Below are positions 1,780 to 22,790 of a stretch of 32,000 nt of DNA, in pieces. Made by a program: the position numbers and the translations under genes. This stretch comes from Gammaproteobacteria bacterium (lineage in GTDB: Bacteria > Pseudomonadota > Gammaproteobacteria > HyVt-429), in NCBI GenBank assembly GCA_013152415.1, contig JAADGI010000014.1, forward strand, positions 36,489-68,488, given 5' to 3'. The notes under the pieces are model-generated. The model did no database searches, was not told where the DNA came from, and saw nothing but the letters and a program-made list of their open reading frames with translations. Numbering within the stretch: position 1 is the first letter of the stretch; every line of letters starts with the position of its first letter.

Positions 1780-2976
1780 TTATTTTGCAATGCTAATCGG
1801 CAAACCTGGAACGTGCGTTACATCCATAACCGTCATTTGATATAAGTGATAAAGTAACTTGAAGACTTCTTGATTCCAGGAAATATCAGGTTCATGGCGA
1901 CTTTTATCGTCCGCCAACCAATAATACGCCGAGTGATACTCCACAAAAAAATCTACATTCTTTGGTTTTTCTGATGACTCCAGAATCTCCAAGGTCTTAA
2001 CCGGATTGGCTGGTATTGTTCCACTACGCGGGTCTTTCTCAACCCGGAATTCAGGATAACTGTGCATGCTGTTTGCAATAAACTCGATTACTGCATTAAA
2101 ACTCCTGAGCTTAATCCATGCTTGGATCGGGAATTCTCCACCGGGGTAACCTGGCCGAATATCCACAAGTATAAAATTATTCGGATACTGCCGGGCTTTC
2201 TTGTCTAACCGGCGACGCTCAAAATTTGAGAGCGTGTTTGGATCAAAGTTGGCAATCAATATACGCCCACGCACAGGTTTGCTAAAAATTTTTTCATTTT
2301 CCTCTGTAGTCCAGAAATAACCTCGCTCTGCGATTTTGAGAAGCTCATCCATTGAGGGATCACGTCCACTAATACTCCATTGCCGATCGTAATTTATTGG
2401 CCCAATATCAAGAACACCCGCATATTCCAACGCGGCTAAATGAAAAACTGCACGACGGAATTGTTGAAACTCTTTGATATGACGAGCATCATTATGAAAA
2501 ATAGTTCGCACACCATTTTTTTCAATTAATATTGCGCGTACCATCAAACGAAGCACCATGCCAATATCAACACCCTGATGTGCCATAAACTCAAACTTGC
2601 TTTCATCCATCGGTGTTAACAGGCGTTTGGTAAAGGCCTCCCCTTGGATCGGGACAATATTGATCGTTGGGTTTTCAGCCACGCTGGTGCCAAGGGCTAG
2701 TGCCATACCACCACCGCCATTTCTAAGCGGCTCCCGTGCCAAGCCAGCATTCATACGAAAATCAAAAGTCGCTGCCACATTGGGTACAGCAGTAAAATGA
2801 ATAGGCATGTGATTACGTGCACGGGCAATATTCAGCAATAAAAGCTGGGTCTGAATTTGTGCGTGCGCTCTATCATATCCAATCACAGCGTGATCCATCG
2901 CTATTGGTGATACGCATCCAACCAACCCACTAATTACTCCGGCCATCACCACAAAACGGTAATACCGGCGCAACAA
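1780..2976 (-). CDS. hypothetical lipoprotein (function unknown)
   Basis: The long ORF is 1780-3141, but its first ~55 codons overlap the end of the upstream amidohydrolase gene. A TTG at 2974-2976 gives (M)LRRYYRFVVMAGVISGLVGC, a textbook lipoprotein signal with an LVGC lipobox. ATG alternatives lie at 3018 and 2946. I recognise no family for the mature part. Confidence 0.6.
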   Translation of the reverse strand: MLRRYYRFVVMAGVISGLVGCVSPIAMDHAVIGYDRAHAQIQTQLLLLNIARARNHMPIHFTAVPNVAATFDFRMNAGLAREPLRNGGGGMALALGTSVAENPTINIVPIQGEAFTKRLLTPMDESKFEFMAHQGVDIGMVLRLMVRAILIEKNGVRTIFHNDARHIKEFQQFRRAVFHLAALEYAGVLDIGPINYDRQWSISGRDPSMDELLKIAERGYFWTTEENEKIFSKPVRGRILIANFDPNTLSNFERRRLDKKARQYPNNFILVDIRPGYPGGEFPIQAWIKLRSFNAVIEFIANSMHSYPEFRVEKDPRSGTIPANPVKTLEILESSEKPKNVDFFVEYHSAYYWLADDKSRHEPDISWNQEVFKLLYHLYQMTVMDVTHVPGLPISIAK

Positions 2977-2989
2977 ACAAATGGTACCC

Positions 2990-4849
2990 TTAAAATACAA
3001 AACACGAACAGCCACCATCCCAACCAAAGGGATCTCGTGTAGCATATCCTCTGCTTTTTTGTGTTGAGGCATGTGAACGTGAACAACAACCCATAGGAGG
3101 TGTGACATGCGAGGCTGTTGAAAACTGCGAATATCCACCATAGATTGCTACGGGAGACCAGTCTGGGCTAACCGGCAGAGGCGCAGGAGCCAATTTGCTA
3201 AAGCCCCCTGCAGCGTACACGATTTTACCGCCAACAATCGTTAACACAGATTCCACCGCCTTAATCTGCTCATCAGGGATAGAAAAATAGTCATCAGACA
3301 ACACCGCAAGATCCGCAAGTTGCCCATCCATAATCTTTCCTTTCTTGTCTTCTTCGCCTGAAAACCAGCTGCTTCCAACTGTCCACAAACGTAGTGCCTC
3401 CATTCGGTCAAGGCAATTATTTTCGGAATAAAGGCACAGACCACCCACTGTTTTTCCCGACACCAACCAATAAAGTGAAACGAATGGATTGTAACTGGCA
3501 ACACGTGTTGCATCGGTGCCGGAGCCGACGGGCACTTCCATTTCCAACATCTTGCTTATGGGTGGCGTTTGCCGTGCTTTGTCTGCACCATAACGAGCAA
3601 CGAAATATTCACCTTGATAGGCCATGCGATGTTGAATAGCAATACCTCCACCAAGTGCTTTGATACGTTCAATATTTTGTTCTGAAATTGTTTCTGCGTG
3701 GTCAATAATCCAGTGCATACCATCAAACGGCACTTCTTTATTCACCTCTTCGTACACATTGAGCACACGTGTGATCGATTCATCATAGGTGGAATGAATA
3801 CGAAATGGCCAACGATTCTGTGCCAACAAGGTAACAACCTCTTTAAGGTCGGATTCCATTGTCTCGGGAAGATTCGGGCGAGGCTCCAGAAAATCTTCAA
3901 AATCTACCGCAGAGAATGCCAACATTTCACCTGCCCCATTCATACGGTAAAAATCATCACCTTGACCGGGGTTAGTCATTTTTATCCATCTACTAAAATC
4001 ATCCATCTCTTGACCGGGTTGTTGCGTAAACAGGTTATAGGCAATTCTCACCGTCAACTGATTATCCCGATGCAATTGGTCAATAACCTCATAGTCATCG
4101 GGAAAATTTTGAAATCCACCACCTGCATCTATCACACTGGTAATACCGAGGCGATTGAGTTCGCGCATAAACTGTCGTGTTGAATTCAGTTGCTGTTCAA
4201 CAGGAAGTTTAGGTGCCATGCCCAAAGTAGAGTACAAAATAAATGCATTGGGCTGTGCAATCAGTAGGCCTGTAGGATGACCGCCCTTGTCCCGCTGAAT
4301 TTCACCACCGGGTGGATTCGGTGTATCTTTTGAATATCCCAATACACGCAGGGCGGCCTGATTGAGAATAGCCCGCGCATATAAATGTAATACCATCACC
4401 GGGGTATCCGGCGCAGCGCTATTAATTTCGGCCAACGTCGGCATACGTCGCTCAGCAAACTGGAACTCTGACCACCCACCGATAACACGAACCCATTGAC
4501 CATTGGGTGTGCGCTGTACTTGCTCCCGCAACATACGCAAGCCGTCTGCAAGCGATGGTACACCATCCCAACGCAACTCCAGATTGTAATTTAGACCACC
4601 ACGAATCAGATGAGTATGTGAGTCATTAAGTCCCGGAATAACTGTGCGCTGTACCAGATCAATAGCCTGGGTATCATTATTTCGATACCGCATAATTTCC
4701 TTTTCGGACCCAATGGCCATGAATTGGTCATCTTTGATTGCGACAGCAGAGACAAAGGCATTCTTTTTATCCATCGTTGCAATGCGACCATTAAACAAAA
4801 TTATGTCCGCATATTCTTCAACACCATTATTTAGATCAGAAACCATCAT
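2990..4849 (-). CDS. metal-dependent amidohydrolase, Amidohydro_3 / YtcJ-like family
   Basis: 619-aa ORF. The N-terminus has ADIILFNGRIATMD...VIPGLNDSHTHL (metal-binding HxH). Later motifs are IHSTYDE, IIDHAE and GSGTDA, typical of the TIM-barrel amidohydrolase_3 group. AAGGTGA lies just upstream of the tandem ATGs at 4849/4846. Confidence 0.85.
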   Translation of the reverse strand: MMVSDLNNGVEEYADIILFNGRIATMDKKNAFVSAVAIKDDQFMAIGSEKEIMRYRNNDTQAIDLVQRTVIPGLNDSHTHLIRGGLNYNLELRWDGVPSLADGLRMLREQVQRTPNGQWVRVIGGWSEFQFAERRMPTLAEINSAAPDTPVMVLHLYARAILNQAALRVLGYSKDTPNPPGGEIQRDKGGHPTGLLIAQPNAFILYSTLGMAPKLPVEQQLNSTRQFMRELNRLGITSVIDAGGGFQNFPDDYEVIDQLHRDNQLTVRIAYNLFTQQPGQEMDDFSRWIKMTNPGQGDDFYRMNGAGEMLAFSAVDFEDFLEPRPNLPETMESDLKEVVTLLAQNRWPFRIHSTYDESITRVLNVYEEVNKEVPFDGMHWIIDHAETISEQNIERIKALGGGIAIQHRMAYQGEYFVARYGADKARQTPPISKMLEMEVPVGSGTDATRVASYNPFVSLYWLVSGKTVGGLCLYSENNCLDRMEALRLWTVGSSWFSGEEDKKGKIMDGQLADLAVLSDDYFSIPDEQIKAVESVLTIVGGKIVYAAGGFSKLAPAPLPVSPDWSPVAIYGGYSQFSTASHVTPPMGCCSRSHASTQKSRGYATRDPFGWDGGCSCFVF

Positions 4850-4931: not shown

Positions 4932-5582
4932 TTATGCTCTTTCCTTGCGACTTGCAGGTTGCCCATGAACCATCGTGTATGCATATTCAACGCCCATGCC
5001 GTAAGCACCACTATGCTCTTTCACAATTTCAATAACGGCGTCATAGGTATCTTTGCGTGCCCAATCGCGTTGGAATTCAAGTAACACCTGTTGCCAGGTT
5101 ACGGGTATAGCACCTGCTTGGGTGATACGTTGTATTGCCATATCGTGCGCCACTGGAGAGGTTCCGCCCGAGGCATCAACTACCGCATACACTTCATACC
5201 CCGCTGCCATTGCTTCTAGTGCAGGAAAAGCAAGGCATACTTCGGTCCATAAAGCGGCAATCACCAATTTCTGGCGGCCGGCTTTTTCTACTTCTGAGAC
5301 AAATTTAGCGTCTTCCCATGAATTCATTGAGGTGCGCTCAACAGGTTCATGAGTCGGAAAAATATCGAGCAACTGCGGCCACATTTGGCCACTGAAACTT
5401 TCTGTCTCAACAGTAGTCAGGATCGTAGGTACACCAAACACCTTCGCGGCCTTAGCCAAGCCCAGCACATTATTCATCAACAGATGGCGATCGATGGAGG
5501 CGACCCCAAAGGACATCTGTGGTTGGTGATCGATAAAAATTACCGTACAGTTATCTGCATTAAGAAGCTGCAATTTAGACAT
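4932..5582 (-). CDS. isochorismatase-family cysteine hydrolase (YcaC-like)
   Basis: TVIFIDHQPQM near the N-terminus and AALWTEVCLAFPAL (catalytic Cys context) match the isochorismatase/YcaC family. I moved the start to the ATG at 5580-5582 (MSKLQLL...), which has AAGGAG 6 nt upstream. The longer ORF to 5624 would overlap the pirin stop. Confidence 0.85.
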   Translation of the reverse strand: MSKLQLLNADNCTVIFIDHQPQMSFGVASIDRHLLMNNVLGLAKAAKVFGVPTILTTVETESFSGQMWPQLLDIFPTHEPVERTSMNSWEDAKFVSEVEKAGRQKLVIAALWTEVCLAFPALEAMAAGYEVYAVVDASGGTSPVAHDMAIQRITQAGAIPVTWQQVLLEFQRDWARKDTYDAVIEIVKEHSGAYGMGVEYAYTMVHGQPASRKERA

Positions 5583-6429: not shown

Positions 6430-7194
6430 TCAAAAATGATAGTTCGGTACTGAATTATGAGGAAATTGTGGGGAGATCAAACCAAGCAAAACAGATTTTG
6501 CAATGGCCTGGCTGCGATTTGTAACATTTAGTTTCTGGATCGAGTTTTTTAAATGAAACACCACTGTCGCTTCAGAAATACTTAGAATTGCCGCAATATC
6601 ATGCGCAGTTTTTCCTTCTGCCACCCATACCAAGCAGGTTTTCTCACGCTCAGTCAGATGGATACTCAATGTACTTTTCTGAGATTGTTGAAATAATTGA
6701 CTGATACGCTCATGTATAAAAGGTTGTAAGGCATTCATGTAAATGATCGCATGGCGTTGCTGCGCAGAATCTTTAGCCATGCTTCTATCTACAGCCAAAC
6801 TGATGAGACCCGTTTTTCCATCAAAATGAGACGTGCCTATACTTATTCCATCACATAATTTGAATTCCTCCGCCTCACCAAAAAATTTACGCACAACTCC
6901 TTCGGTATGTTCATTATAATGCTTCCAGTGATAGGGGGATTGCGAGTTAAAGCAATGTAATGCAACGGGATCGATATTGACATAACCCCGCTCACTGTAA
7001 CGCTCGACCCACTCAGAAGGATAGTCGCCTACAAAAACTGTTGAACTTCGAGTAAAGGTCTCGGGGCATTTGACTACATAGATGATATTTCTAAAATTCA
7101 GATGCTCTCTTATTTTTACTAAAATACATCTAATACCAGATAGATCATTGCTGGTTTTTATTTTTTCGATAATATCAACAAGCCATTGATCCAT
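6430..7194 (-). CDS. LuxR-family transcriptional regulator with an N-terminal autoinducer-binding domain and a C-terminal LuxR/GerE HTH
   Basis: YPSEWVERYSERGYVNIDPV...PYHW keeps the W/Y/D-P/W ligand-pocket pattern of AHL receptors. The C-terminal LTEREKTCLVWVAEGKTAHDIAAILSISEATVVFHLKNSIQKL is a GerE-type HTH. The ATG at 7192-7194 follows AGGTG. The track start at 7203 is a GTG lying inside that RBS. Confidence 0.85.
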   Translation of the reverse strand: MDQWLVDIIEKIKTSNDLSGIRCILVKIREHLNFRNIIYVVKCPETFTRSSTVFVGDYPSEWVERYSERGYVNIDPVALHCFNSQSPYHWKHYNEHTEGVVRKFFGEAEEFKLCDGISIGTSHFDGKTGLISLAVDRSMAKDSAQQRHAIIYMNALQPFIHERISQLFQQSQKSTLSIHLTEREKTCLVWVAEGKTAHDIAAILSISEATVVFHLKNSIQKLNVTNRSQAIAKSVLLGLISPQFPHNSVPNYHF

Positions 7195-7207
7195 TTCATT
7201 CACCTGG

Positions 7208-7219
7208 TTACTTAAGTAA
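7208..7219. promoter_or_regulatory. perfect 12-bp palindrome TTACTTAAGTAA in the luxR-type gene leader (candidate operator)
   Basis: Read directly from the sequence, 14-25 nt upstream of the ATG at 7194. A TACT..AGTA core is reminiscent of HxlR/YodB-type boxes, but no binding protein can be assigned. Confidence 0.3.
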
Positions 7220-7226
7220 TGACATA

Positions 7227-7246
7227 GAAAGAAAGAAAGAAAGAAA
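7227..7246. repeat. tetranucleotide simple-sequence repeat (GAAA)x5
   Basis: gaaagaaagaaagaaagaaa read directly. It lies 33-52 nt upstream of the luxR-type start codon, in the divergent luxR/hxlR intergenic region. Confidence 0.9.
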
Positions 7247-7397
7247 TATATGTAATGCGCAACGGCAACAACAAATTACCAGGGGGGGTATTATTACCAA
7301 CCCTATTTATACCGAGGTGAGGGGCCTTGCATGTTTATATATTCTGCTGGCCGTGTTATGTTAATAATAACTTAAAATATTGGAATTTATAACATGG

Positions 7398-7411
7398 TTA
7401 CCAGTTGGTAA
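7398..7411. promoter_or_regulatory. inverted repeat TTACCA-GT-TGGTAA upstream of the HxlR-family gene (candidate operator)
   Basis: Read directly, 25-38 nt upstream of the ATG at 7436. Additional ATTACCA half-sites lie near 7276 and 7293. Confidence 0.3.
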
Positions 7412-7435
7412 TCATCCAATTTAGCGGAACTAACG

Positions 7436-7762
7436 ATGCTTGAGCCTTTGTCAGATTGCGAACTTGGTCCTTGCGTTAAACTATTAGCGGGTGCATGGAC
7501 TTTAGAAATTTTCTTTTATCTAAAGGATAGACCTCTGTATTTTGGGGAACTTAAACGCAGCTTGGGATCTGTCTCGGCCAAGGTGCTTACAGCACGGCTA
7601 CGGGAACTTGAACAACGGGGAGTGGTCGAAAGATCGGTATTAGGTGGCACACCCCCAAACGTAGAATACAAACTTTCTGATATGGGTCAAGAATTAATCC
7701 CGGTTTTGGATTCATTTTCGGAAGTTAGCCGGAGACTGAATAAATACAACAAGACTCAGTAA
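7436..7762 (+). CDS. HxlR-family winged-helix transcriptional regulator
   Basis: 108 aa. CVKLLAGAWTLEIFFYL...FGELKRSL.SVSAKVLTARLRELEQRGVVERSV...PPNVEYKLSDMGQEL is the canonical HxlR pattern. Confidence 0.9.
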   Translation: MLEPLSDCELGPCVKLLAGAWTLEIFFYLKDRPLYFGELKRSLGSVSAKVLTARLRELEQRGVVERSVLGGTPPNVEYKLSDMGQELIPVLDSFSEVSRRLNKYNKTQ

Positions 7763-7787
7763 TTAAGAAAATACAGGATTACCCCCC

Positions 7788-7957
7788 TTAGCAAAGGTGC
7801 TTTCTGGTCCCTTCTACCCCACAAGGAAGCACCGAGGTCCCCCAGGAGAAGCTTAAGATGAGGGAAGTAGATACTTTAAGTAAAAAGCAGATTTTGTTGT
7901 TATCCCCTCACCCCAACCCTTTTATGCCCTAGGGGTGCTCCCGGAGGGAGAGGGGGC
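7788..7957. repeat. intergenic mosaic repeat, copy A (shares modules with 17385-17540, 18548-18732 and 28962-29020)
   Basis: ttctaccccacaaggaagcaccgaggtcc (7812-7840) matches 18677-18705 at 25 of 29 positions. ttttatgccct (7920-7930) and ctcccggag (7938-7946) match the reverse complement of 17402-17412 and 17385-17392. A local hairpin GGTGCTTTC/GGAAGCACC spans 7796-7832. Confidence 0.55.
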
Positions 7958-8167
7958 TTAAGTAAGTGCCATTCCAACCTGACCCTATATATTTTCTAAA
8001 AAAAAGACAGTAATTTGTAAGCGCAATATCGCAACCTTACCGTTGACCGTAACGTAAAAATCATAATTTTTCTTTTCCTTCCCGTCCTTGCAAGTGTATC
8101 ATCTTCCCTATCTATTCAATGGTAAAGAGATCAGTTTTTGTCTGTATGCCAATTGGAGGTCCAACCA

Positions 8168-8596
8168 ATGTCCGATATCGATATGGAACTGAGCACAGGT
8201 CTTGCCGCCTTTGAGGCCAAGGAATTTTCCCGTGCCAAACAACTATTGTCACCGCTTGCCGATCAAGGTAACGCCGAGGCCCAGCACCGGCTCGCCATTA
8301 TCTATCAAAATGGACTCAGTCTGGTAAAAAATGAAATGTGCGCCTACAAGTGGATGCGTGCCGCTGCCGAACAGGACCACGCCAACGCCCAGCATGGACT
8401 CGGTTTTATGTATCTGCACGGAGAGTGTATCAACAAGAATGAGACCGAAGCCGCACAGTGGTTTCACAAGGCTGCTGAACAGGGATTGATCGGTTCACAG
8501 ACAATCCTGGCGGAGATGTACGCGACAGGCCAGGGTGTTGAAAAAGACCTAGATGAGGCACAAAAATGGAAAAAGCGGGTAGAGGAACAGACTTAG
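8168..8596 (+). CDS. Sel1-repeat (TPR-like) protein
   Basis: There are three to four Sel1 units (GNAEAQHRLAIIYQNG, DHANAQHGLGFMYLHG, GLIGSQTILAEMYATGQGVEKDLDEAQKW). The ATG at 8168 has GGAGG (8155-8159) 8 nt upstream. The track start at 8138 is a TTG. Confidence 0.8.
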   Translation: MSDIDMELSTGLAAFEAKEFSRAKQLLSPLADQGNAEAQHRLAIIYQNGLSLVKNEMCAYKWMRAAAEQDHANAQHGLGFMYLHGECINKNETEAAQWFHKAAEQGLIGSQTILAEMYATGQGVEKDLDEAQKWKKRVEEQT

Positions 8597-8703
8597 CGCA
8601 AGAATAGTGTAGTGGTCGCAACTACTACAAAAAATAAAGCCTTCTCTTCGCCACAAAGGCACGGGTTACCCACTTAATCTGGGGAAGAGCATCATTTTTA
8701 TTT

Positions 8704-11178
8704 CTAGAGCCTTTCTTCGGAAACCAGATGTTCATCCAGGTCCAGGATGACGTTTGTAAAACCATTTTTCTGAGCACCTTGAAGAAACTCGGCACGCCGC
8801 AGGAGCGCCTCTTCTGTACCACCAACGCCAGCCAGACCATTCCCTTGCTCTCGCCCAGGGCGATGGGCTGCCACCAGCGTGTGTGAGCGTTGGTAAATAT
8901 ACTCAGATGCCTTTTGATAGCCGAGTTTACGAACCTTTACATCGTAATAATCTGCTGATGATTCCGTCAGATCAATCACCCATTCCGTTGAGCCCCCATC
9001 AATGATGTCTTGCCGCGCATTGCTGATTAAACCGGGTAATGGCTTATTGTCTTTACCACTTCCTCTCCACACCGTGTTATCGATCCGAGGCTCACCGTTC
9101 CATGCTGCACCTGCCTCGAACACCTTCTTGTAGTCCTCTATCATCCGGGCCTCGGGAACCGCTTCTATAATAAGGAGCCGGTGTGGAACGTTATGCTTCT
9201 GCAAATACTCGACAGCCGTCTTCGTCATCACATAGTCTGATCCGGGGGCAAGCGGCGTAACCAGGGTTAAGTGAACATCGGGATTTCGATCGGCCAATTT
9301 ACGTAGGATATCGGCGATTTGTTCTCGCAGCCAATCTCCTTCCTCCGCATCAATATGGTTCTTTCCAATCAGACCAATCCAGCAATCTTTACGGATTAAG
9401 TCTTGATTTCCACCGTCCTCTACCCTGGTCAGTAGACTTCGGTCCAAAAGGCGAATCTGATTACGGTCAAAATCCCTGGTTTGCTCATCCAAAGATTCAT
9501 AAGGGACAATATTGGGATGAAGTTTACGGGTATCATCCCGGCGCTCACCATATTGCCATCCATCCACATACCTTCCCGCCACCCATGACCGATGCTCAAG
9601 TTCGGCCAGCATCTCTAGCGTATCCGTATCTTCACAAAACCGGAATCCATTCGAGACATCTAAAGCGTATCCGCCTGATACGTAATACCCAGCGGCCGAA
9701 AGCTTGGTTTTAATATGATCTGCGGCCCGACGATTGGAGACACGATAAGTTTCGCTTAGCTCCCGCCATTTAGATAGCGGCAACCCACTCCGCCCTTCGC
9801 CCTCATGACCCAACCGGGTCTGGCGATCTCCCACATAGGCGAGATGGATCTTCAGGGCAATGTCCTCCAAAGACCCCTCTAGTTTTTTCAGCGAGCATAA
9901 CCGATCCTCGACACCAAAAGGCTGGATTATATCGCTGAACCGTCGTGCATGGGACGAAGCAACAAGCAGGTCCCCGATTCCTTCGCATTTGGACAAGCGG
10001 ACATAGGTCGGAGACTTCCAACACCCAGTCTGCTGCATCGTGTTCTGGACGCATATGGCAGCACTCAGCGCTGTAGCACCCTGATCCAGACAAATAAACA
10101 CGGCGGTAACTTCATCGGCTCTCTCGATCTTAGCCATGAGTTCTTTCGACAAACGGTCAGTCTCAAATCGGAAATTTTCGAACCTAATCTCTGCAATCTC
10201 TTTACCTTTGATTTGCGGATAAGCCTGTTCGATCCGCGACTTCGCCATAGCTTCATCATCAGTTAAGATGGTAAAAACGGGGCACTCAAAATCAGGATAT
10301 ACACTAGCGGGTGGCAAGTATCCAATCATCGCCTCGGTATAATCATCGAATCCAATAAAAACTACATGAATACGCTTCTGGTTGCGAAGTTTGGCATAGT
10401 TCCACAGTGGTTCAGCCCAGATGAACTGGCGTACCGCCCAAACGCTGAGGTTGAACGGCAACATATCAAAACTACCACAACTTCGTTTAATGGATTCCGA
10501 ACGCACAAGTTGACGCCACAGTTGCCGATTACTGACGGCGACACTTGCGAGTAACCGTGACCCCACCCTTAGTCGCTCTTCGACAATCTTGCGAGCCATC
10601 ATAGTCACCTCAAGATTCTCGCTATCATCGGGCAGTGCCACGATCAGGCGCCTGGCCTTATGGATTGCTGCTTCTTCCAGAATGGCCCGATCAAGCGGAT
10701 TGCCCACCAAGATTTCAAAACCAAGAAGCCGCGCAACAGTCTCATTCGCCTCATCGTACTTGTTGCCTATCAGTACAACTTTGTGCCCACAATCTACTTC
10801 TGACTTGGCGAATGCAAGGCCATTCTTCGAAAGCCCACAGACAACCGTATGGTCCTTCATCATGCGGATACGCCTGGCCTTGATGGTGCTCGCGAAGAAC
10901 TCGATACCGACCCTGAGAATCGCACCCGCTGTCGCCAGAGGGGCTGTAACACGCGCAATCAAAAGAGAATAATAATCATCAGGAATGGGGATATCCGGTT
11001 TTTCTGCAGAAAAGAACGAGATTGTCCGGGCTACAATTTTTAAGAAAAGGCTGGGGTCAAATTTATTGCCACGGGCCAGCTCATAGACAGCCCAACCGTA
11101 TAAGCCAAGACCCGCGCTTACTGCCGCCCAAAGGAACAATCCGACCCATAAAAACTTATCGGTTCGTTTTATTGACAC
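8704..11178 (-). CDS. membrane protein: N-terminal 2 TM, TrkA_N-like Rossmann region(s), RyR domain, C-terminal SLOG-like (YpsA/DprA/LOG-type) Rossmann domain. Candidate effector/sensor partner of the adjacent TIR protein
   Basis: 824 aa with a GTG start preceded by GGTGA. TM helices at aa 9-31 and 71-95. TrkA_N-like: HTVVCGLSKNGLAFAK...KVVLIG...GNPLDRAILEEAAIHKARRLIVALPDD (aa ~110-225). RyR: LEMLAELEHRSWVAGRYVDGWQYGERRDDTRKLHPNIVPYESLDEQTRDFDRN (aa ~520-575), preceded by IALKIHLAY...WRELSETYRVSNRRAADHIKTKL. SLOG-like (aa ~597-815): WIGLIGKNH, VTPLAPGSD and SHTLVAAH...GVGGTEEAL. No K+ selectivity filter (TVGYG) is present. Confidence 0.75.
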   Translation of the reverse strand: MSIKRTDKFLWVGLFLWAAVSAGLGLYGWAVYELARGNKFDPSLFLKIVARTISFFSAEKPDIPIPDDYYSLLIARVTAPLATAGAILRVGIEFFASTIKARRIRMMKDHTVVCGLSKNGLAFAKSEVDCGHKVVLIGNKYDEANETVARLLGFEILVGNPLDRAILEEAAIHKARRLIVALPDDSENLEVTMMARKIVEERLRVGSRLLASVAVSNRQLWRQLVRSESIKRSCGSFDMLPFNLSVWAVRQFIWAEPLWNYAKLRNQKRIHVVFIGFDDYTEAMIGYLPPASVYPDFECPVFTILTDDEAMAKSRIEQAYPQIKGKEIAEIRFENFRFETDRLSKELMAKIERADEVTAVFICLDQGATALSAAICVQNTMQQTGCWKSPTYVRLSKCEGIGDLLVASSHARRFSDIIQPFGVEDRLCSLKKLEGSLEDIALKIHLAYVGDRQTRLGHEGEGRSGLPLSKWRELSETYRVSNRRAADHIKTKLSAAGYYVSGGYALDVSNGFRFCEDTDTLEMLAELEHRSWVAGRYVDGWQYGERRDDTRKLHPNIVPYESLDEQTRDFDRNQIRLLDRSLLTRVEDGGNQDLIRKDCWIGLIGKNHIDAEEGDWLREQIADILRKLADRNPDVHLTLVTPLAPGSDYVMTKTAVEYLQKHNVPHRLLIIEAVPEARMIEDYKKVFEAGAAWNGEPRIDNTVWRGSGKDNKPLPGLISNARQDIIDGGSTEWVIDLTESSADYYDVKVRKLGYQKASEYIYQRSHTLVAAHRPGREQGNGLAGVGGTEEALLRRAEFLQGAQKNGFTNVILDLDEHLVSEERL

Positions 11179-11374: not shown

Positions 11375-12247
11375 TCAGTGTTTATTTAATATTTTATCGA
11401 GGATAGACTGAAAAACTGTTTGTGCAAAAATCTTATCACTATCACTAATTTCGTTATTTTTATGCTTCGAATGACCCGAGATATTGCGCTCAGCGATTCG
11501 CAGTGAGCGCAACAACTCTTCTGAAATCAATCCATCTGCGATCAAATCGTACTCCCTCTGGAAGGACTTAATCGCAAACCTGGTATTCGTGTCGCTTGCA
11601 CCTGTAATCCTGCCATTATAGTAACCCAATCGCTGTAGAGCCCTCTGCACTTCGTAGGCATGCACGGCCTTTTCCCTGAAATTTCCATCACCACCGGAAA
11701 ATAGAAGTTGCCATGCGACCAACAAACCAAGTATACCGATTGTGGACATGACCACCCCTACAGCAATTCCATGTCTATGGAAAAATTTTACCTTCTTTTT
11801 CTTTAGCAGATTTCGAGACTGCCGGGAATGCACTTCTTGCTGCCCATTTACAACAGGTATGAGTCTGTTAATGTGCGGACCAAGCGGTCCATCGAAAGCA
11901 TCAATCCAGTGATGTGCGCCAATAAAAAACTCAAGCGAGCTGGATGGAAGAATATCCTTTATGCGGAAAGGGAAAATTGGAACGAGTTTTGAGGCTGCGC
12001 GCTCTACCTCGCGTCTTACCATAGGTGATGCATTGGCATCCTCCGTGAGAACCAGCACCATGCACTTCGAGCTATTGATGCCGCGGATAATTTCCTCGCC
12101 GTACTCCCTGCCAGGGCGAACATCTCGCGGCGCGATCCAACACCGACAACCCTTCTTTTCCAAATGCAGGGCTATTTCATATGCCCGATCCTGATCTTGA
12201 GAGGCATAACTGATAAAAGCGAAGTACTCCGTTTCCTGCTCAACCAT
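11375..12247 (-). CDS. TIR-domain protein with one TM helix and a C-terminal peptidoglycan-binding (PG_binding_1) domain
   Basis: 290 aa, with AAGGAGG 8 nt upstream of the ATG. TIR: YFAFISYASQDQDRAYEIALHLEKKGCRCWIAPRD...CMVLVLTEDANASPMVRREVERA (candidate catalytic Glu at E80). KKKKVKFFHRH is followed by the TM helix GIAVGVVMSTIGILGLLVAWQLLF (aa 160-183). PG-binding: VQRALQRLGYYNGRITGASDTNTRFAIKSFQREYDLIADGLISEELLRSL. Confidence 0.85.
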   Translation of the reverse strand: MVEQETEYFAFISYASQDQDRAYEIALHLEKKGCRCWIAPRDVRPGREYGEEIIRGINSSKCMVLVLTEDANASPMVRREVERAASKLVPIFPFRIKDILPSSSLEFFIGAHHWIDAFDGPLGPHINRLIPVVNGQQEVHSRQSRNLLKKKKVKFFHRHGIAVGVVMSTIGILGLLVAWQLLFSGGDGNFREKAVHAYEVQRALQRLGYYNGRITGASDTNTRFAIKSFQREYDLIADGLISEELLRSLRIAERNISGHSKHKNNEISDSDKIFAQTVFQSILDKILNKH

Positions 12248-12630
12248 CGAGACATCCTCCTTAAGCCGTATCCATGTTTTTCCTGGTAGCTACAAATTTC
12301 GGCTCTAGCAGTCAAAACAGCAAAAGACAAACCAAGCTAAGCTTCACGGGCGAAGAAACTAACTTTGTGGGCACGTGACTAATCCAGCACGGTTCCTCAG
12401 GATTGTGCGGGCTTTGCCCAAATCCGGGGCACTACCCATTCTTCTTGCAATTATACTACTGAAAGTAGACTGCATTGGCAAACCACCCCTCTCGATATTC
12501 TTAGGCATGCCCCAAGCCTTTGATCACATCTCGGAGATAGACCAGACCCCCTAATAAAGCAGCCACATCGCAGCAATTCACTGGTTTTGGGGGGATTATC
12601 AGTACACTGAATATTTCTAATATACGAAAA

Positions 12631-12660
12631 AAAAGCAGACAAAATATTGCCTGCTTTTTC
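12631..12660 (-). terminator. rho-independent terminator candidate downstream of clpA (bidirectional shape)
   Basis: aaaaGCAGac-aaaatatt-gcCTGCttttt. The stem AAAAGCAG/CTGCTTTT is flanked by an A-run and a T-run, so the minus-strand transcript ends in a hairpin followed by about 8 U. It lies ~155 nt past the clpA stop. Confidence 0.55.
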
Positions 12661-12813
12661 CCAACCAATTTATCCAAACTGGTCACAAATAGGCCTGCTT
12701 CATCCCTACAACTCCCACTTGGGTAATTTAGTAATTTATAATATTCTACCCCATCCCAGAAATAGGTTTCATCCAGCGCGTTTAATGAGAAGAGCAACTT
12801 GAATCTTTATAGA

Positions 12814-17540: not shown

Positions 17541-17921
17541 TCAAATTATAAAGTAACGTTTTGATTTAAAAGTGTTGTTTCTGGGATTCATTTTGGCGAC
17601 CCACACCAGATGCGCATTCTAACATGACCCTCGCACATAGATAATGCCACACGACATATTAGGGGTTAATTAGAGCCTGGCCTTGCCACCCCCCTATGGA
17701 TACTGGCCCACCTTGCACCTCACTTTCGTTGGGGAACTCATATAACATGGCCCGGTCCAAGCACTGAACAGTGACATTGCACAAACCCTCCGGTTATCGG
17801 AAAATGGGCCCTGTGAACAGTGCCACCGCAGTCTGCCCACCGCCGTCTGCTAGGAATGATGACCCAACTGACAACTCTTTTCATCAAATTGCTTCCCAAA
17901 AGACCTGTCCGACAAAACAAC

Positions 17922-18527
17922 ATGAAACCAAGCCAACTTATCTGCGCAGGACTCCTGATCAGCCTATTAACGAATGGGGGCCTGGTGGTCGCGGGCACCT
18001 CACCAACGCCCACCCTTGATGCCATCCCGGTATGCTATGACTTCGACTGCAACACCCGTCAGGTGGTGAGCCTGTCCCGTGAAGAATGGCAAGGGGTACT
18101 GGGCTGGCTACAACCGGCCGCGACCAACGCAGCAGAAGAACGTAAAAGGATTCGCCAGGCGATTGGGTGGATCGAAGAACTGATTGGGCGGCATACTCCC
18201 ACCCACCTGGATAGCGCCAAAAATGATCTCCTGCCCTCCCAGGCCGAAGGCCAGCAAGACTGCATCGATGAATCGCTCAATACCACGACCTACTTGCGTC
18301 TATTGGAACGTGAAGGACTACTTAAATGGCACCGGGTAGTAGACCGCGCCTATCGCAAGGCGATTCTGGATCAACACTGGGCAGGCCAGATCGAAGAAAT
18401 CGCTACAGGGCAGGGCTATGTGGTCGACTCCTGGTTTTCCGCCAACGGCCATCTACCCTTTATCCAGAAGGTCGAAAAATGGAAAAAAATACGCTATTTC
18501 CGCACCTCGTTTGACTACACCTTCTAG
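17922..18527 (+). CDS. hypothetical secreted/periplasmic protein
   Basis: From the ATG at 17922, MKPSQLICAGLLISLLTNGGLVVAG reads as a signal peptide. The mature part has four Cys (CYDFDC...C) and belongs to no family I recognise. The RBS is weak, and the longer track ORF from 17820 adds a non-signal-like extension. Confidence 0.55.
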   Translation: MKPSQLICAGLLISLLTNGGLVVAGTSPTPTLDAIPVCYDFDCNTRQVVSLSREEWQGVLGWLQPAATNAAEERKRIRQAIGWIEELIGRHTPTHLDSAKNDLLPSQAEGQQDCIDESLNTTTYLRLLEREGLLKWHRVVDRAYRKAILDQHWAGQIEEIATGQGYVVDSWFSANGHLPFIQKVEKWKKIRYFRTSFDYTF

Positions 18528-19934: not shown

Positions 19935-20528
19935 TTACTCGGCCTGTTTTTGTTCACGACGCTCTTGTAACTGCCTGCCCAGCATATGCCTAACCAATAG
20001 GTCACGGTCCTGTTCACGGATGTCGGTGAATTCTACCGCCACCCAATAGCGATGTTCAGGGTCATGCTCACTGCGTACCACCTTTCCCTGGGCCTTCACT
20101 CCCACCATGGATGACATCAACACCAGACGAATCTCCAATGGCGTACCAATGGGCAGCAGTTCATCAAGAGTGAAAGCAATCCCGCCGGCACCGAGACTCA
20201 CATCTCGTATATGATTCCCACTATGCTGAAGTTCCTGCATCATAAAGATTTGCGCCATTTGATTGAGTTTCTTATCGATCTCCCAAAGATACTTGGCCAC
20301 CTCTGGACTACGACTTTCAATCGTACTTAGCAGGGGCCTCATTTCCTGAGTGGTAGATGAAAATCTGGCGGCGAGCACAAATTGATCTACCCCTTGCTGT
20401 TGTTCACCGGGCCGATCTGACGGGACCACTGTATCTGGTGATAGCCGCTGGTAACGCAACATCACACTATCATTGACACGAAAAAAATTTCGCCGGTCTA
20501 CAGCACTTTGCGTTTTGACTTGAACCAT
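19935..20528 (-). CDS. PilZ-domain protein (c-di-GMP receptor candidate) encoded directly after motB
   Basis: RRNFFR (aa 12-17) is the RxxxR motif. DVSLGAGG (aa 109-116) is DxSxxG-like. AGGTGGG RBS. The start lies 10 nt after the motB stop. Confidence 0.8.
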   Translation of the reverse strand: MVQVKTQSAVDRRNFFRVNDSVMLRYQRLSPDTVVPSDRPGEQQQGVDQFVLAARFSSTTQEMRPLLSTIESRSPEVAKYLWEIDKKLNQMAQIFMMQELQHSGNHIRDVSLGAGGIAFTLDELLPIGTPLEIRLVLMSSMVGVKAQGKVVRSEHDPEHRYWVAVEFTDIREQDRDLLVRHMLGRQLQERREQKQAE

Positions 20529-20538
20529 GGCGACCCAC

Positions 20539-21963
20539 CTATTTCCTGGTTGTAGTGCTGATTGTAGAGGGGATCGTATGGCCTTTTAATTGCGGCATAT
20601 CTGGCTCCATCGGGTAGACTTTAGTAGCAGAAGGTACCGACCTGACAGGCCGGGCAGGCCGGGCACCATCGGGTGATTGATTCCTTTTCATTACACTAAT
20701 AGAGCCACCCTCAGCATCCTTGCCTTGCACGATGATTACCTCCACGCGACGATTTATAGCGCGACCAGAGGCGGTACGATTACTGTCCAAGGGCCGAGTA
20801 TCGGCATAGCCCTCTATGCGAAAGCGGCTGGGCTTGATGCTACTTACCGCCATCAACTCGTGGGCCACGGTTGCGGCCCGGGCCGCAGATAGATCCCAGT
20901 TGGACCTGAACCGTGCAGTGCGTATAGGCACACTGTCAGTGTGACCGGCGACGATAAATTCACCCTTGGAGGCCTCCAGTATATCACTCATCTTCATCAG
21001 GATCGGGTAGAAGGGCTCGATAAGGTCGGCATTGCCCGAAGGGAACGATCCCTTCTCGCGTATACGAATAATAATCCTACTGCCTTCAGCCACCACCTGA
21101 ATCAAACCTTGTTGGATCTCTTTCTTTAGGGATTTTTCTATGGCCTTGAGTTCTTTAGTGAGTGCCTCATCCTTCTCCTTGCCTTGAACGCCACCCACAT
21201 CATCTTTGGCCAAGATACCGAGATCCTTCTCTGCCGTACTTTTGGCCAGCTGGATATCCTTATCCATACCTGCTTCAGTCTGTTCAGGCATGCCCTTTAT
21301 TTTGGACGCCATATCCTCGGCCGCCTGAGCATCCTGGGCTTTGGCCATTTCCTGTCCCTTGAGGGTAGTCCCACTTTGCTGGGTATCGCCCTTGCTGTCT
21401 GTGACCGGGCTGGTAAATTCCTTGTCACTGTCCCCCAACCCGGTCAATCCCAACTTTTTTGCGCCTTCATGCTGGCCATGGGTATCCGGGGTTTCCTTAC
21501 CGGATTTTACCCCGACGATATTCTTTGCCTCTTGCTTACCCGGAGTCCCTTTGTCATCCTTCAGGCCCTTTTTGCTCAACACCATCTCTGGCTGAGGTGC
21601 CTGTGGCGATGACACTTCAATCTTGTCAGTTCTTTCATCCGGGACTTCCAGATTCCGCTTCATGTCCTGGGTGGTAAACTGGCGTACTTCATTACGGATG
21701 GTCATCACCGGCCGACCGGGACTGAACTCACGGGCAATAATATTGATACCCTTGGGGGTTTGCTTAACGTTCACATCCCGTTGCACACCGTAGGCCTCCT
21801 TCATGGAGCCTGCGAGTTGTTTAAATTTGAGCGCATCCATTTCAGAAAAAGACAGGAGCAATACAAAGAAGCTCATCAGCAAGGTCATCAGATCGGCAAA
21901 GGTCATCACCCATGCCGGTGAACCCTCGTCTACTTGCTCTTGATTGGCGATTGCCTCTTCCAT
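20539..21963 (-). CDS. motB: flagellar stator protein MotB/PomB family (OmpA-like C-terminal domain) with a long low-complexity linker
   Basis: PAWVMTFADLMTLLMSFFVLLLSFSEMD is the PomB/MotB plug-TM segment with the conserved Asp. The C-terminal IVAGHTDS.P......SNWDLSAARA..V is OmpA/MotB-type PG binding. I took the ATG at 21963 as the start. A GTG at 21981 is an alternative. Confidence 0.85.
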   Translation of the reverse strand: MEEAIANQEQVDEGSPAWVMTFADLMTLLMSFFVLLLSFSEMDALKFKQLAGSMKEAYGVQRDVNVKQTPKGINIIAREFSPGRPVMTIRNEVRQFTTQDMKRNLEVPDERTDKIEVSSPQAPQPEMVLSKKGLKDDKGTPGKQEAKNIVGVKSGKETPDTHGQHEGAKKLGLTGLGDSDKEFTSPVTDSKGDTQQSGTTLKGQEMAKAQDAQAAEDMASKIKGMPEQTEAGMDKDIQLAKSTAEKDLGILAKDDVGGVQGKEKDEALTKELKAIEKSLKKEIQQGLIQVVAEGSRIIIRIREKGSFPSGNADLIEPFYPILMKMSDILEASKGEFIVAGHTDSVPIRTARFRSNWDLSAARAATVAHELMAVSSIKPSRFRIEGYADTRPLDSNRTASGRAINRRVEVIIVQGKDAEGGSISVMKRNQSPDGARPARPVRSVPSATKVYPMEPDMPQLKGHTIPSTISTTTRK

Positions 21964-22013
21964 ATTTACCCAACCGGACACACAGCGGCCACTCGACTAA
22001 ACTCCCGCTGTGA

Positions 22014-22790
22014 TTATGCCGCTTCTTCTTGATCACCCTCGACCTTTTCACGCTTACTCCCAGGCAGGTATGTCTTCAGCATTTCTTCCATGAGTCTGGG
22101 GTTCATCCCTTCTTGTATGGCAGTGATTATCTCAAGGATAAGACGCTTGGTATTTCTCTCTTGACGACTGCGCAAGGCCAATTTATCGGCAATGGGATGG
22201 GCAAAGGCACTGGCAATAACCGCACCGTAAAGGGTAGTGAGGATGGCAACCGACATGGCGGGACCAATCTTCTTCGGGTCATCCATATTGGCAAGCATCT
22301 GCACCAGACCTACCAGGGTACCAATCATTCCCATGGCCGGGGCCACATCACCAATGGCCTTAAAGATGGATTTACCATCATCATGCCTCTCTATGGTGAG
22401 ATTAATGTCCTTGGCCAGCATACGCGCCACCAACTCCGGTTGGTGGCCATCTACTGCCAACTGAATCCCTTTTTTTAGAAATTCATTCTCGGTCTCACGT
22501 CCCTCCAAACCCAACAGGCCTTCCTTGCGGGCCACCTGGGCCAATTCAATACCCTCATTGATGAGATTCATGGGTTTGTCGTTGGAATAGAAAAACGCCT
22601 TCAGACCCACCGAAAACCCGGCAAAGATGTCGGATAGATTGAACTTGATCAGGGTGGCACCAAAGGTACCGCCGATCACAATCAACAAACCCGGCATATT
22701 TAAGAAAATCATGGGGCTGGGGCCAACCAGAATAGCCCCCACAATAACACCGAGGGCACCCAGCAGTCCCAGCGTGGTAGCGAGATCCAC
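22014..22790 (-). CDS. motA: flagellar stator protein MotA/PomA family
   Basis: 258 aa. MDLATTLGLLG..., GDVAPAMGMIGTLVGLV.ML.NMDDPK.IGPAM.VA.LTTLYGA closely follow the PomA/MotA channel signature. Confidence 0.92.
   Translation of the reverse strand: MDLATTLGLLGALGVIVGAILVGPSPMIFLNMPGLLIVIGGTFGATLIKFNLSDIFAGFSVGLKAFFYSNDKPMNLINEGIELAQVARKEGLLGLEGRETENEFLKKGIQLAVDGHQPELVARMLAKDINLTIERHDDGKSIFKAIGDVAPAMGMIGTLVGLVQMLANMDDPKKIGPAMSVAILTTLYGAVIASAFAHPIADKLALRSRQERNTKRLILEIITAIQEGMNPRLMEEMLKTYLPGSKREKVEGDQEEAA

Follow-up and report, generated by a model that had tools for sequence, protein, structure and literature searches.

A membrane-anchored TIR protein with a predicted periplasmic peptidoglycan-binding domain, and its candidate RyR/SLOG-like partner in a gammaproteobacterial locus

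What might a TIR domain do when it is joined, through a single transmembrane (TM) helix, to a domain of the peptidoglycan (PG)-binding type, and does such a protein act by itself? The question is raised by a gene in a 32,000-nucleotide stretch of DNA from a gammaproteobacterium (contig JAADGI010000014.1 of assembly GCA_013152415.1, positions 36,489–68,488), here called the window. An earlier note, made from the sequence alone, had proposed that the encoded protein was a sensor spanning the envelope in one polypeptide. The one-polypeptide part of that proposal was not supported: the gene heads a conserved pair whose second member encodes a TM-TrkA_N-RyR-SLOG-like protein, and its output therefore most likely passes through this second protein. 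The reading that we prefer, and to which we give an even chance, is a Thoeris-like two-gene module in which the membrane-anchored TIR makes a signal derived from ADP-ribose (ADPR) and the RyR/SLOG-like membrane partner reads it. The domains, the topology signals, the catalytic residue, the design common to the family, the linkage of the genes and the conservation of RyDEP-type ligand residues are observed; catalysis, the nature of the signal, the choice of partner domain that reads it, a cue from peptidoglycan and any role in defence or in envelope damage are the parts of this module that we infer.

The TIR protein and its family

The TIR gene, its ribosome-binding sequence and the segments that it encodes are arranged as follows.

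12256–12262, minus strand: Shine–Dalgarno sequence AAGGAGG, 8 nt 5′ of the ATG at 12247 (read from the sequence)
11375–12247, minus strand: gene for the TIR, single-TM, PG_binding_1 protein, 290 amino acids, ATG start (open reading frame (ORF) scan)
11843–12229, minus strand: TIR domain, predicted cytoplasmic, residues 7–135 (Pfam TIR_2, AlphaFold2, Foldseek)
12008–12010, minus strand: codon of E80, the predicted catalytic glutamate, in SPMVRREVERA (hhalign and conservation)
11699–11770, minus strand: TM helix, residues 160–183, preceded by a KKKKVKFFHRH patch (hydropathy, charge)
11501–11659, minus strand: PG_binding_1 domain, predicted periplasmic, residues 197–249 (Pfam, phmmer)

An identical protein is held by NCBI (P0001, 'MAG: TIR domain-containing protein [Gammaproteobacteria bacterium]'). 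The TIR domain is defined by Pfam TIR_2 at residues 11–120 (79.3 bits, cut-off 28, E = 4.5e-22) and by a second profile, Pfam TIR (25.3 bits, cut-off 21.3). AlphaFold2, supplied with a 122-sequence alignment, modelled residues 10–110 of the TIR part with a predicted local distance difference test score (pLDDT) above 95, and Foldseek matched it at probability 1.0 to the solved TIR domains of SPARTA TIR-APAZ, Hydra TRR-2, TLR1, BtpA, SARM1 and AbTir. The model contains a continuous long helix that runs from the end of the TIR domain through the membrane segment. The PG-binding region beyond it was modelled as helices at a pLDDT of only 46–70, owing to the small number of aligned sequences that reach that far, and for its fold assignment we therefore rely on Pfam and on phmmer matches to SleB: PG_binding_1 (PF01471) covers residues 199–249 at 46.7 bits (cut-off 23, E = 3.7e-12; profile positions 7–57 of 57), and the PG-binding domain of SleB (6tci) was matched at E = 0.002.

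The hydropathy profile (Kyte–Doolittle) has one peak only, with a value of 2.3, at residues 160–183, and inspection of sequence and hydropathy revealed no N-terminal signal peptide in the 290-residue protein. Seven of the 15 residues preceding the helix are lysine or arginine and none is acidic (RNLLKKKKVKFFHRH), whereas the 15 residues following it include two lysine or arginine and two acidic residues.

This charge bias extends to a large family in which the part beyond the membrane is exchanged. A word-index search with the window TIR protein returned 361 matches, which align with the TIR part only and differ in their C-terminal domains; topology was scored on the best 120 of them, and domain content and conservation of E80 on 122 sampled members. 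Exactly one TM helix, located about 128 residues past the invariant CWIAPRD motif, was found in 95 of the best 120 relatives, and about five more have a helix at the same position with no match to the motif. Of the 95 one-TM relatives, 72 have more lysine and arginine on the N-terminal flank of the helix and 9 have more on the C-terminal flank. The Pfam domains counted in the 122 members (LCCL in 14, TPR in 8, Sel1 and SH3_3 in 6 each, PG_binding_1 in 4, TolA_C in 3 and FGE-sulfatase in 2), together with the CHASE2, PsbP, DUF4189, DsbA-like and GH10 domains found further in the family, are typical extracytoplasmic modules. The charge bias, in this protein and among its relatives, and the character of the C-terminal domains predict a type II inner-membrane protein with the TIR domain inside and PG_binding_1 in the periplasm. 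This is the orientation proposed in the earlier note, whose TIR domain, single helix at residues 160–183 and PG_binding_1-type repeat likewise stand.

The catalytic glutamate was located with hhalign. MVRREVERA of the window protein pairs with WVHKEIVTA of SARM1, making E80 the equivalent of SARM1 E642, and all 122 relatives examined keep E80 and the motif around it unchanged. None of the three conditions on which the earlier note would have fallen was seen, as far as prediction goes: the C-terminal domain is placed outside the cytoplasm, it scores as PG_binding_1 and the TIR domain retains its glutamate.

The same conservation bears on whether the TIR domain could be a non-catalytic scaffold that recruits its partner by protein contact, as in animal Toll-like receptor adaptors. 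Its nearest sequence matches in the PDB do include MAL/TIRAP, TLR1 and Hydra TRR-2, but an invariant catalytic glutamate and motif argue for an enzyme; moreover, the domains of the partner protein are nucleotide binders, and a Pfam scan of it showed neither a TIR domain nor any shared adaptor domain. A scaffold is accordingly considered very improbable. A profile search placed the TIR domain of oyster TIR-STING (6wt6, E = 1e-11) as the closest relative of the TIR clade among sequences of solved structures, ahead of every bacterial TIR structure.

The family is widespread. A scan of species-representative genomes for the CWIAPRD pattern gave at least 600 loci, from many bacterial phyla, and members are distributed over Proteobacteria, Planctomycetota, Chloroflexota, Acidobacteriota, Actinomycetota, Bacillota and three archaeal lineages; an exhaustive HMMER search over 1.84 billion representatives yielded 758 matches at E < 1e-30. 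The TIR-TM-PG_binding_1 layout was seen elsewhere only in P0157, P0221 and P0007 among the proteins retrieved, and a metagenome scan with the TIR-TM-PG alignment gave 80 more family loci, none of them reaching into the PG domain. The architecture, which the earlier note had not recognised from characterised TIR defence proteins, is thus recurrent yet rare (4 of the 122 sampled relatives); it is not unique, being a variant of the very large TIR-TM-X family and one choice of outside domain among many. Viral contigs scanned with the family gave 14 distant matches only, on which count a phage origin was rejected.

A different arrangement of what may be the same parts was observed at 11 loci, mostly of Steroidobacteraceae-type Gammaproteobacteria, where a gene for a Tll0287-like and HAMP sensor overlaps a short TIR gene by 1–4 bp. 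The short TIR proteins belong to the CWIAPRD clade and are without a TM helix (for example, 7111–7980 followed by 7977–8651 in locus L016). Such loci include L016, L021, L030, L051, L059 and L063, and some of them (L021, L034, L059 and L077) carry a SLOG-like/SLATT gene on the opposite strand. The arrangement resembles the sensor-TM-TIR design divided between two genes.

The partner gene and its linkage to TIR genes

The second gene of the pair lies 196 bp downstream of the TIR gene on the same strand.

8704–11178, minus strand: partner gene, 824 amino acids, with a hydrophobic N terminus followed by TrkA_N (RCK), RyR and SLOG-like domains (Pfam, linkage, homologues P0122–P0132)
11086–11154, minus strand: first hydrophobic segment, residues 9–31 (hydropathy)
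10576–10845, minus strand: TrkA_N / RCK nucleotide-binding domain, residues 112–201 (Pfam, 50.5 bits, cut-off 23.8)
9430–9741, minus strand: RyR (R12-type) domain, residues 480–583, with H529, W532, H554 and D571 (Pfam, phmmer)
8707–9393, minus strand: SLOG-like C-terminal domain, residues 596–824 (hidden Markov model (HMM) built from N-terminal domains of SLATT proteins)

The hydrophobic N terminus contains a second, weaker segment at residues 70–98, and W, GW and APL motifs are conserved in the alignment of this region across the partner family. A K+ channel of the Kch/MthK type was considered for the partner and rejected for want of a pore signature.

The RyR domain (PF02026) scores 54.7 bits against a cut-off of 27.4, and phmmer matched it to the repeat domains of RyR1, RyR2 and RyR3 at E values down to about 1e-25. 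RyR (R12) domains were shown to bind isomers of cyclic ADPR (cADPR) only in 2026, and in phage proteins only: phage RyR-domain proteins bind 2′cADPR and 3′cADPR and one of the proteins cleaves these signals (2026 preprint, PMC13232231). The residues of RyDEP that bind or cleave cADPR isomers are H75, W78, H100 and D117, in a study confined to viral proteins (PMC13232231). In the partner, H529, W532, H554 and D571 have the same spacing (+3, +25, +42), the comparison being one of spacing only, and the four residues are kept in 10 of 12 full-length homologues (P0121–P0132, the window protein counted) and at locus L090. RyDEPs are small soluble viral counter-defence proteins, in contrast to the partner, a cellular membrane protein of 824 residues encoded beside a TIR gene, and this difference places the partner on the signalling side, as a receiver or regulator, and not on the side of evasion. 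Small lone RyR proteins of RyDEP size (approximately 100–125 residues) were also seen on cellular contigs, at 11598–11900 of L022, 2051–2371 of L095 and 5469–5843 of L082, where their genes adjoin family TIR genes or a partner homologue.

The C-terminal domain of the partner was assigned with an HMM derived from the N-terminal domains of SLATT proteins encoded beside related TIR genes. This HMM matches residues 601–685 of the partner at 27 bits and every full-length partner homologue tested at E values of 1e-5 to 1e-13, and it is on these matches that the partner is described as TM-RCK-RyR-SLOG-like. Three motifs are common to the partner C terminus and the SLATT-fused SLOG-like domains: a G-x-x-G-H-R-like loop, PLA-G-[AS]-D and GGT-x-x-E. 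With a profile of the SLOG-like domain, PDB sequences returned noise and no solved structure, and a large protein search returned three uninformative matches. The C terminus, which is sub-threshold against curated families, is treated here as SLOG-like, and it would then amount to a domain fusion that links RyR and SLOG-like functions.

Linkage was measured on 80 genome loci and 80 metagenome loci of the TIR family, within a search span of 8 kb. The window partner itself, searched against 80 TIR-family loci, had matches in 8. Clustering of the flanking ORFs defined two recurrent types of neighbour, a SLOG-like/SLATT_1/DUF4231 protein (13 loci) and a TM-TrkA_N-RyR protein, and a gene of one or both types is present at 18 of the 80 genome loci and 16 of the 80 metagenome loci. 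For loci at least 8 kb long the corresponding counts are 17 of 75 and 12 of 29, so that about 20–40% of family loci carry a partner; the metagenome loci are an independent sample and agree with the genome loci. The nearest partner ORF lies no more than 300 bp from the TIR ORF in 22 of the 34 partnered loci, a distribution far from uniform over ±8 kb.

The order SLOG-like/SLATT, TrkA_N-RyR, TIR recurs at L090, L119 and L132, with L002 a variant. Of the other TIR-TM-PG_binding_1 genes, only the one at L090 has usable flanks; P0221 (locus L089) sits on a 1-kb contig with no neighbours. On one strand of L090, a SLOG-like/SLATT gene (with a match to DUF4231) and a TrkA_N-RyR gene precede the TIR-TM-PG_binding_1 gene, and the TrkA_N-RyR protein shares 28% identity with the window partner across 696 residues (E = 1e-79).

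Linkage was also sampled from the partner side, at the loci of eight full-length homologues. One homologue divergently adjoins a family TIR-CHASE2 gene (137 bits), and another has a gene with a weak TIR_2 match nearby; in four (L081, L084, L085 and L087) the adjoining genes encode an nSTAND1 NTPase and a patatin, in one (L083) the neighbours are caspase-WD40, serpin and trypsin-caspase genes, and in one (L082) the neighbour is the small RyR protein. The partner may therefore serve several conflict-type systems, not the TIR protein alone. A further type of neighbour, a RyR-TPR-S-guanylate/adenylate cyclase protein, divergently adjoins a family TIR gene at 5414–7711 of L053 and 5476–7761 of L121; this type would link TIR to cyclic-nucleotide synthesis.

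These counts bear most directly on the possibility that the TIR protein is a stand-alone NADase spanning the envelope, which senses wall damage and kills or arrests the cell by depleting NAD+, with an unrelated gene downstream. The catalytic glutamate is present, self-contained TIR NADase effectors are known (SARM1, SPARTA and AbTir, all of them among the Foldseek matches) and about 60–75% of family loci have no such partner within 8 kb; the TIR protein can thus apparently work alone or with unlinked genes. The recurrence of the same partner type across phyla, mostly within 300 bp, and its presence at L090, the one other informative locus of the same architecture, speak against a TIR protein acting alone, as does the fact that the partner holds two domains expected to bind ADPR-type nucleotides. 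We regard a stand-alone NADase as quite unlikely.

The three-gene loci raise another possibility, namely that the partner is a RyDEP-like glycosidase or sponge of the host, which degrades or buffers the TIR signal and so sets a threshold or serves as an off-switch, while killing is carried out elsewhere, by the SLOG-like/SLATT protein of other genomes or through loss of NAD+. The positions of the RyDEP catalytic dyad are kept in the partner (H529 and D571), and a separate protein of the SLOG-like/SLATT pore type is encoded at L090, L119, L132 and L002. The window, however, has no SLATT gene, and the membrane anchor, RCK domain and SLOG-like domain exceed the needs of a simple hydrolase. Of eight phage RyDEP homologues, moreover, six bound signals and none cleaved them despite the conserved residues. 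A partner that only degrades or sequesters the signal is thus unlikely, although somewhat less so than an NADase acting alone.

A proposed signalling module and its relation to known systems

In the preferred reading, the two-gene module, the TIR-TM-PG_binding_1 protein would be the half that generates the signal. Its PG domain might engage the murein sacculus, nascent glycan or muropeptides, and a change in this periplasmic binding would alter the clustering of the TIR domains through the juxtamembrane and TM helix. Clustered TIR domains, with E80 as the catalytic residue, would turn NAD+ into a nucleotide derived from ADPR, probably a cADPR isomer. The partner would read this nucleotide by its RyR domain, its SLOG-like domain or both, and would act at the membrane by ion flux, permeabilization or growth arrest; possibly it also hydrolyses the signal.

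The likeness to Thoeris lies in a TIR domain with a catalytic glutamate whose gene adjoins one for a protein with nucleotide-signal-binding domains and membrane segments, in the SLOG-like/SLATT proteins encoded directly beside the TIR gene at related loci, and in the linkage of TIR to a gene for a signal-binding domain at 34 of 160 related loci and at L090. In type VII Thoeris, a TIR protein is combined with the SLATT effector ThsH and the signal is canonical cADPR (bioRxiv 10.64898/2025.12.03.692087); there, a TIR protein with 'SLOG and 4TM' is a predicted, unverified configuration (Yirmiya et al.). The differences are that the window TIR is anchored in the membrane with a domain outside, whereas the Thoeris descriptions consulted mention no membrane anchor on ThsB, and that the partner is not a described effector type (ThsA, ThsC–L). 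In the examined parts of the tables of the same preprint there is no RyR or TrkA effector, and the examined portion of Table S1 does not contain the CWIAPRD motif. ThsA (SIR2-SLOG) and the SLOG/SLATT conflict-system proteins (Aravind-group classification, cited in PMC9503650) offer a further comparison: the partner C terminus has motifs in common with the SLATT-fused SLOG-like domains, but in the partner the SLOG-like domain is fused to RCK and RyR domains and not to SIR2 or SLATT.

Several observations, besides the many unpartnered loci, weigh against the two-gene module. PADLOC has no model for, and gave no match to, the window partner or either of the two partner types. Pfam YAcAr matches only 3 of 16 SLOG-like members, all below threshold (best E = 0.0048). 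The N-terminal region has no K+ selectivity signature, with no Ion_trans match and no GYG-like motif in the alignment, and the window encodes no SLATT-like pore protein. Only about 14 residues separate the TM helix from the PG domain, perhaps too few to reach the sacculus in a Gram-negative periplasm. When others tested two operons of the 'SLOG and 4TM' kind in E. coli, neither conferred defence (bioRxiv 10.64898/2025.12.03.692087). Lastly, the window does not look like a defence island.

The flanks of the pair (clpS-clpA, icd, a LuxR-type regulator, HxlR, pirin and isochorismatase genes) are housekeeping genes, with no defence genes near, and would suit a role in envelope maintenance instead of immunity, in which the receptors report the status of the wall or periplasm by an NAD+-derived messenger to an RCK-domain protein of ion homeostasis. 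Consistent with this, bacteria of soil and sediment carry members of the family in great number and viral contigs seldom do, its outside domains (CHASE2, PsbP) and neighbours (Tll0287 with HAMP) resemble those of ordinary sensory receptors, and RCK domains normally gate ion transport. Against it, the nSTAND1 NTPase, patatin and caspase-WD40 genes beside partner homologues are typical of conflict systems, the SLATT partners are known cell-killing effectors, and the fast swapping of domains and the patchy distribution across domains of life fit conflict systems. Envelope housekeeping is judged improbable, on a par with a signal-degrading partner.

Two further systems share parts of the design. 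Zorya is an anti-phage sensor anchored in the envelope by PG binding, in which ZorA and ZorB form a MotAB-type 5:2 proton-driven motor with an OmpA-like PG domain (PMC11890865). As in Zorya, an inner-membrane protein with a periplasmic PG-binding domain is proposed to couple perturbation of the envelope to a response in the cytoplasm, but in the window protein PG_binding_1 is fused straight to the TIR domain and no homology was found. Toll-like and IL-1 receptors follow a similar logic, with a ligand-binding domain outside, one TM helix and a TIR domain in the cytoplasm, and the ectodomains vary greatly across the family. The window protein differs from Toll-like receptors in its N-terminal TIR domain (reversed polarity), in the absence of an ectodomain of leucine-rich repeats or immunoglobulin folds and in a TIR domain that is predicted to be an enzyme and not an adaptor. 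The resemblance between TIR-TM-X proteins and Toll-like receptors looks like independent assembly, not orthology.

No paper was found on TIR fusions to PG-binding domains, on membrane-anchored TIR proteins of the Thoeris type or on cellular TIR-RyR operons, in a literature coverage that did not extend to the founding SLOG/SLATT paper. In the sources consulted, bacterial TIR signalling systems are described with neither a membrane anchor nor an outside domain on the TIR sensor. A swappable periplasmic domain on a TIR enzyme would extend TIR signalling to extracytoplasmic cues, such as cell-wall damage or surface events at phage entry. An operon of TIR and RyR genes in the host offers bacterial RyR domains a native function that can be tested, and it is relevant to the old debate over how cADPR relates to the ryanodine receptor. 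Given a family that is large (at least 600 loci) and unannotated in defence databases, one characterized member would annotate thousands of genes. More broadly, and only tentatively, since we think it rather unlikely as a whole, prokaryotes may possess widespread transmembrane receptors of the innate-immune type, each with a ligand domain outside, one TM helix and an enzymatic TIR domain in the cytoplasm, that relay an outside cue (here the state of the peptidoglycan) as a cADPR-type nucleotide to cellular RyR (R12)-domain and SLOG-like membrane proteins. On that view, phage RyDEP sponges would have been captured from TIR-RyR operons, their native setting in the cell, and these operons would also be a prokaryotic antecedent of the animal cADPR–ryanodine receptor axis.

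Other features of the window

The pair is separated from clpA, upstream, by a gap of 566 bp (12248–12813), within which one feature was taken as the module boundary.

12626–12655, minus strand: hairpin followed by a T-run, probable clpA terminator and upstream boundary of the module (read from the sequence)

The hairpin was not listed by the consensus terminator scan. The same gap contains a sigma-70-like site at 12481–12453 and a 98-residue ORF (12501–12797), which runs across the terminator and is probably not a real gene. The window contains no tRNA gene or Rfam element that would mark an island boundary, and the difference in GC content within it is modest.

On the minus strand at 19935–22790 are genes for a PilZ protein, a long MotB-like protein (480 residues; MotB_plug and OmpA PG-binding domains) and a MotA/ExbB-like protein. 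The MotA/MotB-like pair (20539–22790) was considered as a linked Zorya-like sensor; it lies 8 kb away, has the PilZ neighbour and a stator-like appearance, and the link is unsupported. The lowest GC content of the window (0.39) coincides with the gene for the LuxR-type regulator (6430–7203, minus strand), which has autoinducer-binding and GerE domains. No LuxI-type synthase occurs among the window ORFs scanned; the regulator is perhaps a solo LuxR, within a stretch of low GC content that extends from approximately 5.6 to 8 kb.

Two ORFs have no Pfam match, 1780–3141 (minus strand, 453 residues) and 17820–18527 (plus strand, 235 residues). The first overlaps an amidohydrolase ORF (2990–4849) by approximately 150 nt, and one of the two starts is therefore probably wrong. 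Convergent with the partner gene, at 8138–8596 on the plus strand, is a gene for a small Sel1-repeat protein that has no signal peptide; Sel1 repeats are also one of the outside domains chosen in the TIR family.

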